Shown here piece by piece: positions 22,104 to 32,000 of a stretch of DNA of 32,000 nt (its first letter is position 1; each line of letters opens with the position of its first letter). Source of the stretch: Methylorubrum extorquens (GTDB taxonomy: Bacteria > Pseudomonadota > Alphaproteobacteria > Rhizobiales > Beijerinckiaceae). The position numbers and the translations under genes are program-made. The DNA lies in assembly GCA_900234795.1 (NCBI GenBank), contig LT962688.1, positions 870,001-902,000 of the forward strand, written 5' to 3'. Under the pieces are notes generated by a model that worked only from the letters and a program-made list of their open reading frames with translations, made no database searches and was not told the origin of the DNA.

Positions 22104-22877
22104 GTGGAAGGCGTGAGCGTACGCCGCGTGGGTCGAAACCGACTTGCCGGTCCGTTCGGCCTCAAGCTACCAAGCCTCGACCAGGGCACTCAGCTTTTCC
22201 GGCCGTAACGTGGTCGGTGCTGTGCCGTACGGCTGGGCAGCCATCGGCGACGACGAAAAGGTTTGAGGCGCAATAAGGTGTTGGCCGACGTCGAGGGATT
22301 CGCCCTGTGCCGCGGCCTTGCGGATGAGACTTGCCCGCTGCATCACCGCCGTGACAGCCCAGGCGAGTTTTCGACGGTCCGACTTATCGCCAACAACGCC
22401 GCGCTGCTTCAGCGCTGCTTCAGCACGGCATCAGCTTGGTCGGTGCACCCCTCCGCCATGTCTCGCCGAGCACCGACCGCTGGATCTGCCGCCTCCTTGA
22501 TGAGCGTGGCACCCAGGTTCGGTTGAAGCGACCAGCCAGGCGGGCGGCGCGGCCAGAGATGCTCGCCGAGATCAATTCGCCAGAAGGCCTGCTGACTCGG
22601 CTCATCACGATACTGGTCGATCCACCATGCGTAGAGCGGGGCGGCCATCTCGTTTACCTCGCGCGCGCTCAGCAGCTTTGGGCCTGCGCGGAGGTTCGTC
22701 CACCGGAACGAACGCATGGGCATGGAGGTTCTTGGCGCGAACCGGATCCTTCGTGCCAAGGCTGATCTTCTCTTCGCGCTTGCCGAGGCACGCGAGAAGG
22801 TCGGCTGGCACGGCTCGCTGCAGATAGTAGATGCCGGTTTTGGGATGCTTCCAGGGACGCGTCGTCATCAACGACAT
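22084..22877 (-). pseudogene. tyrosine integrase remnant (N-terminal part only, multiply disrupted)
   Basis: MSLMTTRPWKHPKTGIYYLQRAVPADL...GTKDPVRAK continues after a frameshift as ...RWTNLRAGPKLLSAREVNEMAAPLYAWWIDQYRDEPSQ.... It is then broken by an 11-bp tandem duplication (22401-22422) and an in-frame TAG (22167-22169). No catalytic C-terminal domain remains. It is adjacent to the tRNA-Leu 3' end. Confidence 0.7.
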
Positions 22878-22902
22878 TTGTACCACCCGTTTGTACCACC
22901 CG
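22877..22902 (+). repeat. perfect 13-bp tandem direct repeat (tttgtaccacccg x2), candidate integrase arm-type sites
   Basis: Units at 22877-22889 and 22890-22902 overlap the integrase start. They lie 62 nt from the tRNA 3' end, and the motif recurs at 7129-7141. Confidence 0.5.
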
Positions 22903-22963: not shown

Positions 22964-23048
22964 TGGTGCCCAGGAAAGGACTCGAACCTTCACCTCTTGC
23001 AAGACTGGTACCTGAAACCAGCGCGTCTACCAATTCCGCCACCTGGGC
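22964..23048 (-). tRNA. tRNA-Leu(CAG)
   Basis: The reverse complement reads GCCCAGGTGGCGGAATTGGTAGACGCGCTGGTTTCAGGTACCAGTCTTGCAAGAGGTGAAGGTTCGAGTCCTTTCCTGGGCACCA. It is 85 nt with a long variable arm, the anticodon loop TTCAGGT, and an encoded CCA. Confidence 0.93.
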
Positions 23049-26833: not shown

Positions 26834-27586
26834 TCAGAACAGCGGCCGCAGGACGAGATGGAGCCCGAGGCCCAGCAGGCCGACGAAGAAGCAGCGGCGG
26901 AACACCCGCTCGCTGACGCGCCCCCGCACCCAGCCGCCGAGCGCCATGCCGAGCAGGGCCGGCACGAGGGCGATGAGGGAGGTGCCCGCGACGCTGAGCG
27001 AGAGGGCGCCGCCACCGGTCAGGGCGATGGCGAGCGCGACGGTGGAGACGGTGAAGGAGAGCCCCAGCGCCTGGATCAGGTCCTCCTTGGTCAGGCCCAG
27101 CGCTCCGAGATAGGGCGCGGAGGGGAACGACGACACGGCGGTGGCCGCCGTCACCAACCCCGTCGCCGCGCCGATGAGCGGCCCGAGCCAGCGTTCCATG
27201 CCCGGCGGAACGTGGAGCCGCAGGGCGGCGAGGCCGATCACGGCGTAGGCGATCAAAGCGAGGCCGAGGAAGACCGTGGCTTCCGCGCCGTAATTCCCAT
27301 GAAGGATCCCCGCCGCAACCAGGGTGCCGACGACGCTCGCCGCCAGCATCGGCCAGAGCCGGCGCAGCAGCGTGCCGAAGCGCGGGCCCGCGGCGAGCTG
27401 CCAGACATTGGTGACGAAGGCGGGCACCACGAGCAGGGCCGCGGCCTGGACCGGCGCCATGACGAGACTGAGCAAGCCCATGGCGACGGGCGGCAGGCCG
27501 AGCCCGACCATACCCTTGACGAAGCCCGCAAGGAGGAAGGCCGACGCCGCCACAGCGAGGGGGAGGGGGTCCATGGAAAACGTCAT
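26834..27586 (-). CDS. sulfite exporter TauE/SafE family membrane protein
   Basis: Multi-TM protein with the motif AGFVKGMVGLGLPPVAMGLL. ATG at 27584-27586; the track ORF begins two codons earlier at a GTG (27592). Confidence 0.8.
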   Translation of the reverse strand: MTFSMDPLPLAVAASAFLLAGFVKGMVGLGLPPVAMGLLSLVMAPVQAAALLVVPAFVTNVWQLAAGPRFGTLLRRLWPMLAASVVGTLVAAGILHGNYGAEATVFLGLALIAYAVIGLAALRLHVPPGMERWLGPLIGAATGLVTAATAVSSFPSAPYLGALGLTKEDLIQALGLSFTVSTVALAIALTGGGALSLSVAGTSLIALVPALLGMALGGWVRGRVSERVFRRCFFVGLLGLGLHLVLRPLF

Positions 27587-27640
27587 GAGCACGTTCTGAT
27601 CGGGGGAAGGGGCAAAAGGGTCAGTAGGGGTCGGTCAGAG

Positions 27641-27889
27641 TCAGTCGTGGAGCCGCATGTCGCGCAGGATCGCCTGCCGCGCGGCTTCCGCCTCGGCCTC
27701 CTTCGTAGAAAGCGGCGCGGCTTCCGGCATGGGCCGGGCGACCGCGACCGGCGGCGCGCCGGTGCAGGCGCGCGGGCCGGGATCGGAACGGGCGATGGCA
27801 ACCAGCGCGGTGAACCCCGCGAGGAGAAGGGCCGCCGTTTCGAGCCGGGCGGCGCCCGAGCGGATCGTTGTCTGTGCGTCGCGTGGCAT
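27641..27889 (-). CDS. hypothetical small membrane-anchored protein (82 aa)
   Basis: Shows strong GC3 bias and one hydrophobic segment (AALLLAGFTALVAIA). I recognise no family. Confidence 0.4.
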   Translation of the reverse strand: MPRDAQTTIRSGAARLETAALLLAGFTALVAIARSDPGPRACTGAPPVAVARPMPEAAPLSTKEAEAEAARQAILRDMRLHD

Positions 27890-28017
27890 AGCCTGAGTTT
27901 CGCAGCGCGAGGGCGTGCGACAATGCGGAAGTGGCCCGTATCAGCCTTCGGCTGAGCCGAAGCCCTTGCCGCGGGATGCGGCCTCGCCGACGAGGCTCTG
28001 GCTTTTCGTCCCTGCAT

Positions 28018-28055
28018 CGTCTTCTTCCGAAAGCCGACGACCACCTTTCGCGACG
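28018..28055 (+). repeat. REP-like hairpin repeat, copy 3
   Basis: cgtcttcttccgaaagccgacgaccacctttcgcgacg, ending 7 nt upstream of the lysR-type start codon. Confidence 0.6.
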
Positions 28056-28062
28056 ATGCTCA

Positions 28063-29016
28063 ATGCGCTTCGATCTGACCGACCTGCGCCTGTTCCTCCA
28101 TGTCGTCGAGGCGGAGAGCATCACCCGTGGCGCCGAGCGGGCCGGGCTGGCGCTTGCCTCGGCGAGCGAGCGCATCCGCGGCATGGAGGCGGATGGCGGC
28201 GTGCCGCTCTTGGAGCGCCATGCCCGCGGGGTGCGCCCGACGCCGGCGGGCCTCGCCGTGGTGCATCACGCCCGGCTCGTGCTCGGCCAGCTCGAACAGA
28301 TGCGCGGCGAACTCGGCCAGTACGCGAGGGGCCTGCGCGGTCATGTCAGGCTGCTGTCGATCACCGCGGCGGTCGCCGCCTTCCTGCCCGATGCGCTGTC
28401 CGGTTTCCTTGCGGCCTATCCCAGCGTCGACATCGATCTCGAGGAGCGCACCAGCCGCGAGACCGTCGATGCTCTGGCGGGTGGGCTTGCCGATCTCGGC
28501 ATCGTCGCCGACACGACCGATCTCGGCGCGCTCGAAACCCGGCCGCTCCTTCTCGATCGGATCGTGCTCGCCGTGCCGGCGGGCCATGCCCTGGCGCAGC
28601 GGAGCGGCGTCGCGTTCCGGGAGGTGCTGGACGAGCCTTTGGTCGGCCTCAGCCACGGCCGGGCGCTGCAGGCGCATCTCGCGACCCACGCTGCCCGCGC
28701 CGGCCGTCCGTTCAAGCTGCGGGTGCGCCTGAACGGGCTCGATGCGGTCTGCCGCATGGTCGAGCGGGGCGTCGGCGTGGCGATCGTGCCCGAGGCGGCG
28801 GCGCAGCGCGCGGCGGAGACGCTGGCGATCCGCGCGATTCCAATCGACGAGCCCTGGGCCGTGCGCCAGCTCAGGCTCTGCGCCCGCAGCTTCGCAGCGC
28901 TTCCCCCGCACGCCCGCCAACTCGCCGAGCACTTGGTGGCGCATCTCGGCGCAGCTGAGAGTCCGGCTTTCGAAAGGACAAACCCTTTCGCGGCTCCAGG
29001 GCAGAGCCCTGGCTGA
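28063..29016 (+). CDS. LysR family transcriptional regulator
   Basis: Starts MRFDLTDLRLFLHVVEAESITRGAERAGLALASASERIRGMEADGGVPLLERHARGVRPTPAG (winged HTH), followed by a LysR substrate-binding domain. ATG at 28063. Confidence 0.9.
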   Translation: MRFDLTDLRLFLHVVEAESITRGAERAGLALASASERIRGMEADGGVPLLERHARGVRPTPAGLAVVHHARLVLGQLEQMRGELGQYARGLRGHVRLLSITAAVAAFLPDALSGFLAAYPSVDIDLEERTSRETVDALAGGLADLGIVADTTDLGALETRPLLLDRIVLAVPAGHALAQRSGVAFREVLDEPLVGLSHGRALQAHLATHAARAGRPFKLRVRLNGLDAVCRMVERGVGVAIVPEAAAQRAAETLAIRAIPIDEPWAVRQLRLCARSFAALPPHARQLAEHLVAHLGAAESPAFERTNPFAAPGQSPG

Positions 29017-29044
29017 CATCCGTGATCGACGTCAGCGATCGCGA

Positions 29045-30055
29045 TCAGGCGAGGCGCTCGACCGATACGGGATGCCGCGGAACGCCCTGCTTCTCGAAGC
29101 AGGACAGGTTCTCGATGGTGGTCGCGGCAATCGCCGCCAGCGCCTCGGCGGTGAAGAAGGCCTGATGCCCCGTCACGATCACGTTCGGGAAGGTCAGCAG
29201 GCGCGAGAAGACGTCGTCCCGGATGATCTGGTTCGACAGATCCTCGAAGAAGAGGCCGCCTTCCTCCTCGTAGACGTCGAGACCGAGATCGCCGATCACC
29301 CCTGATTTCAAACCCTCGATCAGCGCCGCGGTATCGACGAGCGCCCCGCGCCCCGTATTGATCAGCATCACGCCGCGCTTCATCCGCGCCAGCGCGGCAC
29401 GGTCGATCATGTGATGCGTGTCGGGCGTCAGCGGGCAGTGCAAGGAGACGATGTCCGCCTCGGCCAAAAGCCGGTCGAGGCCCACCGCCTCCGCGCCGAA
29501 GCCGGCGAGTTCGGCCGAGGGCATGGGATCATAGGCTAGCACGCGGCAGCCGAAGCCGGCGAGGATGCGCGCGACCGCGCGACCGATCTTGCCGGTTCCG
29601 ACGATGCCGACCGTGCGTCCCTTGAGATCGAAGCCCAGCAACCCCTCGAGCGCGAAGTTTCCCTCGCGGACGCGGGCATAGGCCCGGTGGGTCTTGCGAT
29701 TGAGCGCGAGGATCAGGGCCACCGTATGCTCGGCGACCGCGTCCGGCGAATAGGCCGGGACGCGGCCGACCGCGATGCCGAGTTCCGCGGCGGCGGGAAG
29801 ATCGACATTGTTGAAGCCGGCGCTGCGCAGGGCCACCATCCGCGTCCCGGAGACGGCCAGCACCTCCAGAACGGGCCGGTCGAGCACGTCGTTGACGAAG
29901 GCACACACGGCCCGCGCTCCCTGCGTCAGCGGCGCGCTCTCATGGGTCAACCGGGCTTCGAGATAGCGCAGCCGGTGCGGCTCTCCCGCCGCCGCGTTGG
30001 CCCCGTCCAGGAACCGCCGATCATAGGCCTTGGTGCTGAAGATCGTGACGTCCAT
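29045..30055 (-). CDS. ldhA: D-lactate dehydrogenase (fermentative LdhA-like 2-hydroxyacid dehydrogenase)
   Basis: Resembles enterobacterial LdhA end to end as I recall it: FSTKAYDRRFL, LRSAGFNNVDL, VPAYSPDAVAEH, GIVGTGKIG, SLHCPLTPDTHH, NTGRGALVD, LDVYEEE..LFFED and VTGHQAFFT. Confidence 0.88.
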   Translation of the reverse strand: MDVTIFSTKAYDRRFLDGANAAAGEPHRLRYLEARLTHESAPLTQGARAVCAFVNDVLDRPVLEVLAVSGTRMVALRSAGFNNVDLPAAAELGIAVGRVPAYSPDAVAEHTVALILALNRKTHRAYARVREGNFALEGLLGFDLKGRTVGIVGTGKIGRAVARILAGFGCRVLAYDPMPSAELAGFGAEAVGLDRLLAEADIVSLHCPLTPDTHHMIDRAALARMKRGVMLINTGRGALVDTAALIEGLKSGVIGDLGLDVYEEEGGLFFEDLSNQIIRDDVFSRLLTFPNVIVTGHQAFFTAEALAAIAATTIENLSCFEKQGVPRHPVSVERLA

Positions 30056-30330
30056 GCGACCTCATCTCGCACGCTGCGATCCGACCATGCGGTTGATCCT
30101 GCATGCCGGGCGCGCGGTGATCGCCGATGTCCGCGGCGCGCGCTGCCTCAAACAGCACATAACCGCTGCCGCCTTGCCCTGATGCCTCGCGGGCTGTGGA
30201 TCATGACTGGCACCGAGCCGCCTCGGAACCACGCTCCGCGCCGGTCATGCGGATCCACCCATACCGGGCGTCGTGCACCCTCGAAGCAGGAAGCGTGTTG
30301 CAGGACGAGCAGGCCCGCGGATGAGACGCC

Positions 30331-30368
30331 AGAAACAAAAAACCCGCCAAGTCACGGACCGGGCGGGC
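30331..30368 (-). terminator. rho-independent terminator downstream of the tRNA-Gln 3' end
   Basis: The minus strand reads CCCGCC-cggtccgtgactt-GGCGGG followed by TTTTTTGTTTCT. It begins about 10 nt past the CCA end. Confidence 0.6.
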
Positions 30369-30377
30369 GAAAACCGA

Positions 30378-30439
30378 TGGCTGGGGGACCTGGATTCGAA
30401 CCAGGACTAGCGGAGTCAGAGTCCGCACCAACCAACTGG
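30378..30439 (-). pseudogene. tRNA-Gln(CUG) 3' fragment (D-arm to CCA, no 5' acceptor arm), putative att repeat
   Basis: The reverse complement reads CCAGTTGGTTGGT-GCGGA-CTCTGAC-TCCGC-TAGT-CCTGG-TTCGAAT-CCAGG-TCCCCCA-G-CCA. The anticodon is CUG, and A72/G73 are typical of tRNA-Gln. The upstream 7-mer (GTAGCGT) cannot pair with TCCCCCA. Confidence 0.6.
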
Positions 30440-30479
30440 AAACGCTACGCTTTTCTCCCGAACAGAGGAAAAAGCAGTC

Positions 30480-30746
30480 ATGCAATATCAAAGGGTTACG
30501 AAGAGAAATCCGACCAAACCTGCCTCAAAAGGGTACGGAGAAAAGCAAAACGCCGCTGCGGGGGGTAGAGCCCGCAACGGCGCTAATCGGAAGGATTCAG
30601 GCAAAGGAACCAAGCGAAAGAATACCGCCCGGCGAAACCCGCTGACAAGCGCCTCGGTGGCCGCCCTCGACCGAGAAGTCATGGTCTCCGGCGTGTTCAG
30701 CAGTCGCACCGCTGCGCGCAGCTTTCTGCTGGGAGCCGCGGCATGA
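30480..30746 (+). CDS. possible small basic protein (88 aa), doubtful
   Basis: Its only support is the ATGA stop/start overlap with the next ORF. The N-terminal half is Lys/Arg/Asn-rich low complexity, and the start is uncertain. Confidence 0.2.
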   Translation: MQYQRVTKRNPTKPASKGYGEKQNAAAGGRARNGANRKDSGKGTKRKNTARRNPLTSASVAALDREVMVSGVFSSRTAARSFLLGAAA

Positions 30747-31018
30747 GCGAGCACCCTTACTACGGCACGCCCGAGGAACTGCGCGACTTTGTGCACGAGT
30801 GCCTGCACATGACCGCCTTCTATTCCGGCATGGCGGTCAGCTATGCTGAGGCCCATGACGACGCGGGCCTTGAGTATTCCACCCGGAAAGCCGCCACTGC
30901 CTTAAAGTCAGGCGTGACCGTGCTCGGTATGCTCAAGCAGGCCAACGCCAAACTGCTGAAGGAGCGGCTGAGAGCACGCGCCGAACGCGAGGGCGCCGAC
31001 TTGGCGCTCGGGCTGTGA
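30743..31018 (+). CDS. hypothetical protein (91 aa), mobile-element associated
   Basis: ATG start with good coding bias. It is followed 11 nt later by the primase gene, which has a strong RBS. I recognise no family. Confidence 0.55.
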   Translation: MSEHPYYGTPEELRDFVHECLHMTAFYSGMAVSYAEAHDDAGLEYSTRKAATALKSGVTVLGMLKQANAKLLKERLRARAEREGADLALGL

Positions 31019-31029
31019 GGGAGGAAGGC

Positions 31030-32000
31030 ATGAGAGACTTTCCCTCTTTCGACGCGGAGCTTGATGACCTCGGGCCAGAGCCAGAAAGCCGCTGGCCAGG
31101 GTACGGCAACGATGAGCCGGAGCCCAAGCGCAAGCTGAAGCTCGACCACGATGGCGAGCCGCTGAACCAGGACTCAGCGGCGCAGGCGTTTGCCCAGCGC
31201 TACGCTGGGCGCCTGCTGTACTGCCACGACTCGGCCAAGTGGTACGAGTGGACGGGCGCCGCTTGGGAGCCCAACCGCTGCGGCATCGCTTTCCAGTGGT
31301 CTCGTGAGCTTATCCGTGAGCTGTTTGCTGAGAAGAGCGATAGGACGCGCTACATCGCCAGCAAGGTGGAGTTCGCAGGCGGAGTCGAGAAGTACTGCCG
31401 GCATGATCCAGCCCTCGCCGTCACTATCGAGGGCTGGGACGCCGATCCGTGGCTGTTGGGCACGCCCGGCGGCACAGTGGACCTGCGCACGGGCGACCTG
31501 CATCCGGCGGACCCTGCTGAGCGCATCACGAAGCTGACGGCGGTGGCGCCAGCCGAAGCGCCGAACTGCCCGAACTGGCTGCGCTTCCTTAACGACGTGA
31601 CACAGGGCGATGCCGGCTACATCCGGTTTCTGCAGCAATGGGCCGGCTACTGCCTGACCGGCGACACCAGCGAGCAGGCCCTGTGCTTCGCCTTTGGTGG
31701 CGGCGGCAACGGCAAGGGCGTGCTGATCCACGTGCTGGCCGGCATCCTGAAGGACTACGCTGTCAACGCCGCGATGGAGACCTTCACCGCGTCCAAGCAC
31801 GACCGCCACCCGACTGAGATTGCAGCCTTGCGCGGCGCACGGCTGGTGACGGCTTCGGAGACAGAGCAAGGCCGCCAGTGGGCAGAGGCCCGGATCAAGC
31901 AGCTGACCGGCGGCGACACCATGCGCGCCCGTTACATGCGGCAGGACGAGTTCGAGTTCACGCCCGTCCTGAAGCTGCTCATCATCGGCAACAACAAGCC
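31030..32000 (+). CDS. phage/plasmid primase, P4 family (D5-like primase-helicase), 3'-partial
   Basis: RBS GGGAGGAAGG, then ATG at 31030. My own translation gives ...WDADPWLLGTPGGTVDLRTG...ITKLTAV...CPNWLRFLNDVTQGD...FLQQWAGYCLTG..SEQALCFAFGGGGNGKGVL (Walker A)...IAALRGARLVTASE...QLTGGDTMRARYMRQDEFEFTPVLKLLIIGNNKP. It is open to the window end and is not in the ORF track. Confidence 0.85.
   Translation, partial: MRDFPSFDAELDDLGPEPESRWPGYGNDEPEPKRKLKLDHDGEPLNQDSAAQAFAQRYAGRLLYCHDSAKWYEWTGAAWEPNRCGIAFQWSRELIRELFAEKSDRTRYIASKVEFAGGVEKYCRHDPALAVTIEGWDADPWLLGTPGGTVDLRTGDLHPADPAERITKLTAVAPAEAPNCPNWLRFLNDVTQGDAGYIRFLQQWAGYCLTGDTSEQALCFAFGGGGNGKGVLIHVLAGILKDYAVNAAMETFTASKHDRHPTEIAALRGARLVTASETEQGRQWAEARIKQLTGGDTMRARYMRQDEFEFTPVLKLLIIGNNK

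Follow-up and report, generated by a model that had tools for sequence, protein, structure and literature searches.

A stranded tRNA-Gln(CUG) 3′ end in Methylorubrum extorquens as the putative integrase-distal junction of a satellite-like island

Why does Methylorubrum extorquens carry, beside ldhA, a piece of a tRNA-Gln(CUG) gene with a putative helicase gene behind it? We took up this question in a 32,000-nt stretch of assembly GCA_900234795.1 (contig LT962688.1, positions 870,001 to 902,000 of the forward strand), hereafter the window; coordinates given without further qualification are positions within it. A preliminary description of the same DNA had read the piece of tRNA as the displaced attachment (att) copy at the distal end of an element inserted into tRNA-Gln. 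Our analysis, which draws on two empty sites and on relatives with the predicted layout, supports this view: an element resides in tRNA-Gln(CUG), and the fragment is its displaced att copy, on the integrase-distal side. We consider it probable that the window ends in such a junction, that the island belongs to a family resembling those phage-inducible chromosomal islands that form capsids (cfPICIs), and that this particular copy is a degraded or mosaic remnant in an integration hot spot and not an autonomous element. The features on which the argument turns are these:

30331 to 30360, minus strand: intrinsic terminator native to the chromosomal tRNA-Gln(CUG) gene, supported by a terminator scan and by the same sequence following the intact tRNA in two empty sites (L101 and L124).
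30378 to 30426, minus strand: the 3′ 49 nt of tRNA-Gln(CUG), the direct repeat that forms the att core of the integrase-distal junction; exact match, no ARAGORN call, Rfam score below the gathering score.
30427 to 30479, no strand assigned: A-rich att arm on the element side, with the motif ..TTGAAA..ACTGCGCTTTTTCTCCGA..GGAG.AAAGC.
30480 to 30746, plus strand: ORF88, a small basic protein of 88 aa and the first gene of a rightward operon, conserved at the same length in the family (ORF, open reading frame).
30743 to 31018, plus strand: ORF91, a small two-helix hairpin protein of 91 aa, sharing an ATGA overlap with ORF88.
31030 to 32000, plus strand: superfamily 3 (SF3) helicase (D5_N and DUF5906), of which the N-terminal 323 of 485 aa are present before the window end cuts the gene; its NCBI name is “phage/plasmid primase, P4 family.”

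How much of a tRNA is left at this site? Positions 30378–30426 (minus strand) are an exact copy of the intact tRNA-Gln(CUG) over its last 49 nt, which begin with the 5′ anticodon-stem strand and run through CCA. An exact search of metagenome contigs with these 49 nt returned 31 loci, and in 30 of them the intact 74-nt tRNA-Gln(CUG) was present, its sequence reading tgggggatagtttaacggtagaacc and then GCGGACTCTGACTCCGCTAGTCCTGGTTCGAATCCAGGTCCCCCAGCCA. The genuine D-arm of this tRNA is TAGTTTAACGGTAGAAC, to which the 13 nt at 30427–30439 are dissimilar. The earlier description had recognized a tRNA-Gln(CUG) “from the D-arm to CCA” at 30378–30439; comparison with the intact gene upholds the exact 3′ part and trims it from 62 to 49 nt, because the D-arm is absent. 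A D-arm at 30427–30439 is ruled out by the same comparison, and those 13 nt are element DNA.

The fragment is an att scar and is nonfunctional as a tRNA, as the preliminary description had also concluded. With 49 of 74 nt matched, it has no complete cloverleaf, no paired acceptor stem, and no D-arm. ARAGORN, which had been expected to make no call here, was indeed silent at 30378–30460, its one tRNA in the whole window being tRNA-Leu(CAG) at 22964–23048. The Rfam tRNA model scored 22.9 bits on 30382–30459 (minus strand), under its gathering score of 29; in that alignment, a 21-nt insertion replaces the D-arm and three of the seven acceptor pairs are broken. Beyond the 3′ end of the fragment, where a terminator had been predicted, the scan found a minus-strand hairpin at 30341–30360 followed by a T-run, and the identical terminator lies downstream of the intact tRNA in one of the empty sites (L101).

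Two further copies of this 3′ end deserve mention. A contig from sample ERR2849808 (L002, positions 1–60) carries the stranded fragment with two T-stem substitutions (CCTGG to CCCAG), which is consistent with a fragment that is free to decay. In a plasmid collection, the exact 49-nt tRNA-Gln 3′ segment was matched on the 1.26-Mb megaplasmid of M. extorquens AM1 (NC_012811.1, 1162507–1162555).

Is the DNA to the right of the fragment inserted? The first empty site, on a metagenome contig (L101), is 99.84% identical to the window over 28539–30426; past 30426, it continues with the remaining 25 nt of the tRNA and then with an unrelated chromosomal flank. The tRNA 5′ part together with this flank, as found in L101 and in a contig of a sister genome (L136, described below), is GCGGTTCTACCGTTAAACTATCCCCCACCGGAGCCGTCACCGG. 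The second empty site, in M. extorquens GCA_024169945.1 (L124), is 95.6% identical and contains an intact tRNA-Gln, in the order glycosyltransferase-like gene, intact tRNA-Gln, terminator, ldhA, LysR. In both, the intact tRNA borders the same terminator and ldhA, and the homology to the window ends exactly at 30426/30427. Therefore, the DNA to the right of 30426 is inserted, and the terminator is the tRNA's own, that is, chromosomal and not element DNA. A repeat identical to the target tRNA's 3′ part and an unoccupied site whose breakpoint falls at that repeat, both seen here, are marks of an island integrated at a tRNA gene by a tyrosine integrase; a third mark, an integrase gene beside an intact copy of the tRNA at the other end, is seen in the sister genome (L136) and in relatives. 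The junction is a textbook case of this known kind, and the copy looks incomplete. It shares with tRNA-targeting islands in tandem arrays the repeat of the tRNA 3′ end, the displaced fragment, the intact tRNA on the integrase side, the use of one tRNA by several unrelated islands, and tandem occupancy.

The history of the site may be pictured as follows. In a M. extorquens strain, a tyrosine integrase would have taken the chromosomal tRNA-Gln(CUG) gene as its target and inserted the element at the 3′ end, by recombination at the 49-nt core common to element and tRNA, as expected from the known action of this class of integrase. An intact tRNA would thereby have been rebuilt at the integrase end, to the right of the window, and the original 3′ 49 nt would have been left stranded with the native terminator beside ldhA. 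The copy in the window has the leader, ORF88, an unrelated ORF91, and the SF3 helicase, with no primase gene, and, judging by 100%-identical proxies from other strains, it would run on into a plasmid-type DEDDh exonuclease and insertion sequence (IS) elements instead of packaging genes.

What lies on the element side of the junction? The leader is AT-richer than its surroundings, in line with the preliminary description, with a guanine-cytosine (GC) content of 53–59% at 30300–30700 vs. 63–70% on either side. The motif of the att arm is kept at the same position in L019, L024, L117, and L139, with an arm GC of 53–57%, and the tRNA-Gln fragment and leader are equally placed in L019/L090, L024, L091, L092, L117, and L138–L140. 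One of these relatives differs on the chromosomal side: between positions 1–2002 of L117, which is from a related species and occupies the same tRNA-Gln site, and window positions 27314–30523, ldhA (29105–30336 in the window) is missing between LysR and the terminator.

The small ORFs with overlapping or closely spaced stops and starts that had been noted in this segment are confirmed at 30480–30746 and 30743–31018, with the start of the next gene corrected from 31031 to 31030. ORF88 is 47% identical, over equal length, to the 88-aa ORF of family relatives. Between the L092 and L090 copies, its substitutions number 14, 10, and 31 at the three codon positions, and ORF88 looks coding because of this excess at third positions. 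ORF91 stands where close relatives have a 127-aa ORF and a Prim-Pol/PriCT_1 gene, and it is unrelated to either. It has ∼25 distant, unannotated relatives of 70–110 aa that share the motif GTP..LRE..E...DD.GL.Y..RR. An AlphaFold model (predicted local distance difference test score of 93) suggests two long helices in a plain helical hairpin, and this predicted structure had no significant fold match in the PDB. ORF88, ORF91, and a 78-aa ORF met beyond the window in other samples (see below) had no matches in Pfam, NCBIfam, PHROG, or PADLOC.

The gene at 31030 is the part of the element that most readily invites a name. Judged from identical copies, it would end at ∼32487, and the segment within the window is 100% identical to L001 (a contig of the sister genome) and P0001. 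Its product matches D5_N and DUF5906 in Pfam, NF011296 with 752 bits, and TIGR01613 (primase C-terminal) with 274 bits, and the Walker A motif GGGGNGKG, which had been pointed out before, is encoded at 31696–31719. No primase domain was found among its Pfam, NCBIfam, and PHROG matches; the PHROG primase families align to the helicase by their C-terminal halves only, from about residue 330 onward. The product is an SF3 helicase without a primase domain, so that of the earlier label “P4-type primase-helicase” the helicase part stands (D5_N, DUF5906, TIGR01613) and the primase part does not.

To what kind of element does this left module belong? Relatives with a helicase 77–81% identical were found in Methylobacterium bullatum, in strain Leaf108, and on a Logan contig. 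Their order is 88-aa ORF, 127-aa ORF, Prim-Pol/PriCT_1, helicase, and small ORFs, and an HK97 capsid gene follows further on in M. bullatum and on the Logan contig but not in Leaf108, with a Peptidase_S78 gene as well in M. bullatum. The separate Prim-Pol gene of these close relatives is absent from the window copy, which has the unrelated ORF91 instead. In a plasmid collection, the helicase was matched on a chromosome-sized M. bullatum replicon (79.5%).

Complete relatives, among them CP088247.1 at 4760470–4781519 and ERZ contigs, show what an intact island looks like. At the same tRNA-Gln chromosomal locus, Methylorubrum sp. B1-46 and two metagenomes (L138–L140) carry islands of ∼11 kb with a 47–48-nt repeat, the leader, a Toprim primase, an AAA_25 helicase, HNH, TerL, capsid, S78 protease, and portal genes, then a 62-aa ORF, and last a 349-aa integrase. 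Another 40 bp separate this integrase from the start of the intact tRNA-Gln. The same body sits at tRNA-Lys(CTT) in L129–L134, with a fused 762-aa D5_N/DUF5906 protein. On one metagenome contig (L117/L104), the 49-nt repeat, an integrase, and an intact tRNA-Gln bound a more prophage-like island of ∼20 kb, whose L104 part includes a tape-measure gene. At seven loci with more distant helicase relatives, an intact tRNA lies 8–10 kb to the right, and on the left its 3′ end is repeated over 19–60 nt, with integrases confirmed beside the tRNA in four of the seven. The common layout is att fragment, A-rich leader, small ORF, exchangeable replication module, HNH/TerL, capsid/protease/portal, small Xis-like ORF, integrase, and tRNA. 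The family consists of compact, capsid-encoding, satellite-like (cfPICI-like) islands of ∼11 kb in Methylobacteriaceae, and the left module in the window belongs to it. In other collections, the att end was absent from an IMG/VR relative (L144), and a phage collection had no match to a 3.3-kb block beginning at the junction.

The preliminary description had taken the element to be of P4 type, a view the family does not bear out: it is cfPICI-like rather than P4-like. With P4 it shares a tyrosine integrase acting on a tRNA 3′ end and a helicase that matches TIGR01613 and D5_N. It differs in that the window helicase has no primase domain, the relatives having a separate Prim-Pol/PriCT_1 gene, and in that the relatives, unlike P4, have capsid genes of their own. 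Neither psu, delta, sid, nor epsilon, for which no dedicated profiles were run, appeared among the Pfam-annotated neighbors of any of the loci examined, and the only AlpA-like signal was weak HTH_17 matches in L090 and L091.

The complete relatives fit better the set of genes by which de Sousa et al. 2023 (PMC10085698) define cfPICIs. The islands of L138–L140 and L129–L134 combine, in ∼11 kb, an integrase, a primase/replicase, HNH, TerL, an HK97-type capsid, a prohead protease, and a portal, and among the genes called in L129 and L139 there is none with a match to a Pfam family of tail or lysis proteins. Replication modules are exchanged in PICIs and cfPICIs, and these relatives likewise swap theirs (Prim-Pol and helicase; Toprim and AAA_25; or the fused 762-aa protein); the primase/replicase module of the set is represented in the window by the SF3 helicase. 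The fit has limits, however. The window copy is the replication-side end only and, by proxy, lacks packaging genes; in the relatives, a head-tail adaptor/connector and TerS were not identified, with small unannotated ORFs lying between TerL and the capsid (L129 and L139). Compared with the classical arrangement, the genes run in the opposite order, the integrase coming last beside the portal and the replication genes standing at the far end, and the related island L104 is prophage-like in having a tape-measure gene. The satellite survey in PMC10085698 does not mention Alphaproteobacteria.

How does the element continue past the window? Contig LMNQ01000007.1 of the sister genome GCA_001423025.1 (L001) is 100% identical to window positions 30376–32000 and serves, with L002 and similar contigs, as a proxy. 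In L001 and ∼20 short-read samples, the helicase is followed, on the opposite strand, by a gene for a 296-aa DEDDh 3′–5′ exonuclease. This gene (L001, 11971–12861) is ∼82% identical to genes on several Methylobacterium plasmids of 33–50 kb, e.g., pMOC3 (L143, 3988–4884), which points to a plasmid-derived patch within the island. The exonuclease as conserved family cargo is not supported, the RNase_T gene of L092 not being homologous to it. The L001 and L002 lineages part 3347 bp from the junction: L001 continues with a PAS-GAF-GGDEF gene and then an IS1182-family transposase at the contig end, and L002–L004 continue with the 78-aa ORF and then the apparent start of an IS, a call made from the letters alone. 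In the 2.3–5.3 kb past the window covered by these two proxies, there were no packaging genes, primase, or integrase; an own capsid, protease, portal, HNH, and TerL are, thus, missing from this copy by proxy only and provisionally. Rightward of the junction, the 49-nt fragment does not recur in the 6.9 kb available from L001, an exact-pattern search of viral contigs with the right-end sequence of L002 gave no match, and the only defense-system match was a generic one to DEDDh. The preliminary description had expected novel cargo in the remainder of the element, and this was not borne out; what the proxies show 2–5 kb past the window is the rest of the helicase, the plasmid-type exonuclease, divergent sequence, and IS elements. 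The short-read contigs break off where they reach the 49-nt repeat or an IS element.

To the left of the fragment, L001 differs from the window. It has not ldhA but a frameshifted DUF6538-type integrase of another island, and this left-hand island is 71–86% identical to the island adjoining an intact tRNA-Gln in L127 and L128. L001 is, thus, a tandem array in which the fragment serves as a common att site. A tblastn search with the left-hand integrase against the other loci gave no matches, and that integrase represents a different island type. Another contig of the same sister genome (L136) carries an intact tRNA-Gln, with a 349-aa Phage_integrase gene at a distance of 40 bp, and this tRNA adjoins the expected chromosomal flank, 98.8% identical to L101. 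For this sister genome, the preliminary prediction of an intact tRNA-Gln and an integrase at the other end holds. To the left of the integrase in L136 lie ROS/MucR, PIN_10, and hypothetical genes, and the same set recurs in L135, from a genome without this helicase.

At least four unrelated island types integrate at the tRNA-Gln(CUG) of M. extorquens and its relatives, and tandem arrays occur there in L001 and L135:

Type 1: the helicase element.
Type 2: integrase, AlpA-like, and PriCT_2 (L125).
Type 3: DUF6538-integrase, SIR2 (SIR2_2), and type I restriction-modification (L127/L128).
Type 4: Toprim-type capsid element (L138–L140).

Could the junction have arisen otherwise, or could the copy be something other than a remnant? 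That nothing was inserted, the fragment being a tRNA pseudogene born of local duplication or decay, or else an assembly chimera at the repeat, we regard as extremely improbable. Short-read contigs from other samples do break inside the 49-nt repeat, and most of them cannot confirm the junction. However, the empty sites break off precisely where the 49-nt core ends, the arrangement of fragment, leader, and ORF88 is kept in several genomes and species, and L002 by itself spans the junction with 5 nt of ldhA-side flank, because its fragment carries the two substitutions. A complete and functional P4-type or satellite island, with an integrase, an intact tRNA-Gln, and possibly novel cargo, able to excise and replicate, seems to us unlikely. 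The family has exactly this architecture, a sister genome holds an integrase with an intact tRNA-Gln, and the 100% identity of 1.6–3.3 kb across strains and ∼20 samples suggests recent spread; yet the window copy, unlike all close relatives, has no primase domain or gene, the two proxy lineages show a plasmid-type exonuclease, unrelated sequence, and IS elements in place of packaging genes 2–5 kb past the helicase, and neither P4 hallmark genes nor defense matches other than the generic DEDDh one were seen. A credible account, if not the one we favor, is that an older satellite within a tandem array left the helicase block behind and that the tRNA-proximal integrase came with a later, unrelated island. 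The locus is a hot spot for at least four island types, L001 demonstrably has an L127-type island directly to the left of the fragment, and the integrase of L136 and its neighbors (ROS/MucR, PIN_10) recur in L135, from a genome whose 5,998,907-bp chromosome does not figure among the contigs with the identical helicase. On the other hand, the stretch of L001 to the right of the junction has no second copy of the 49-nt fragment, and the right end has been seen in no strain.

We favor the reading of the window as the distal junction of a cfPICI-like island whose copy here is probably degraded or mosaic; degradation is likely because there is no primase gene and because the proxies have the exonuclease and IS elements instead of packaging genes. 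The insertion, the core, the place of the left module in the family, and the lack of the primase are demonstrated, and the recombination mechanism, the degradation, and the content of the right end are inferred. Several observations weigh against parts of this reading. In GCA_001423025.1, the integrase contig (L136) and the helicase contig (L001) are separate and unjoined, and the L136 integrase may belong to a separate, later island, because the same integrase with similar neighbors stands in the helicase-less L135 genome. Among the best 120 homologs of the family integrase, there was none that could be assigned to the genome of the window. Both the degradation and the presence of an integrase rest on proxies from other strains. 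Finally, helicase-only replication modules could use a host or helper primase, so that a missing Prim-Pol is no proof of inactivity.

What these results change in the annotation is the island boundary, which is now placed correctly, the tRNA-like stretch, which becomes a 49-nt att scar, and the label “P4 primase,” which gives way to a helicase without a primase domain. They also document a family of capsid-encoding, satellite-like elements of ∼11 kb in Methylobacteriaceae, a group for which PMC10085698 reports nothing.

Does the leader carry anything besides the att arm and ORF88? One further candidate lies on its minus strand:

30539 to 30648, minus strand: candidate antisense small RNA (sRNA) of ∼75 nt, inside ORF88, marked by promoter-like boxes, a hairpin, a U-run, and covariation.

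Promoter-like elements at 30648–30619 (−35 TTGTCA, 18-nt spacer, −10 TATTCT) precede a 14-bp hairpin at 30584–30549 and a U-run reaching down to ∼30539, and both boxes are kept in six family variants. Across seven variants of the hairpin, 98% of alignment cells are paired and 5 of the 14 pairs are changed on both sides. The covariation score is 0.425 vs. a shuffled mean of 0.18, with 0 of 500 shuffles reaching it; pairing falls to 41–60% in slid registers; and three G-U pairs occur, on the minus strand only. In elements that carry other replication modules (L139, L131, L025, and L028), a covariance model also finds the hairpin, at the corresponding place in the leader. The unit is not a member of an Rfam family, the best match being ctRNA_pGA1 (RF00236) with 16.5 bits against a threshold of 45. 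It resembles plasmid countertranscript RNAs in having a minus-strand promoter, a hairpin, and a U-run antisense to the 5′ part of a replication operon, as well as in the weak Rfam similarity; it is unlike them in that the score is far under the threshold and that the host is an integrative island and not a plasmid. Perhaps the leader encodes an undescribed antisense sRNA of ∼75 nt that acts as a countertranscript on ORF88 and the replication operon, which would amount to plasmid-style control of copy number or induction in cfPICI-like satellites of Alphaproteobacteria, whatever their replication module; the idea is tentative, and we would sooner doubt than assert it. Hairpin and promoter together offer a small lead on how replication of such elements may be regulated.

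A second island appears to have decayed within the window. By eye, positions 22409–22886 (minus strand) contain the frameshifted, truncated N terminus of a DUF6538-type integrase (ORFs at 22605–22886 and 22409–22759). This stretch adjoins the tRNA-Leu(CAG) gene at 22964–23048; the match between L124 and the window breaks off at 22889, a place where L124 carries DUF6538 and integrase genes. The stretch is a decayed island at tRNA-Leu, and it is probably the “first” element that the preliminary description had counted before the one treated here.

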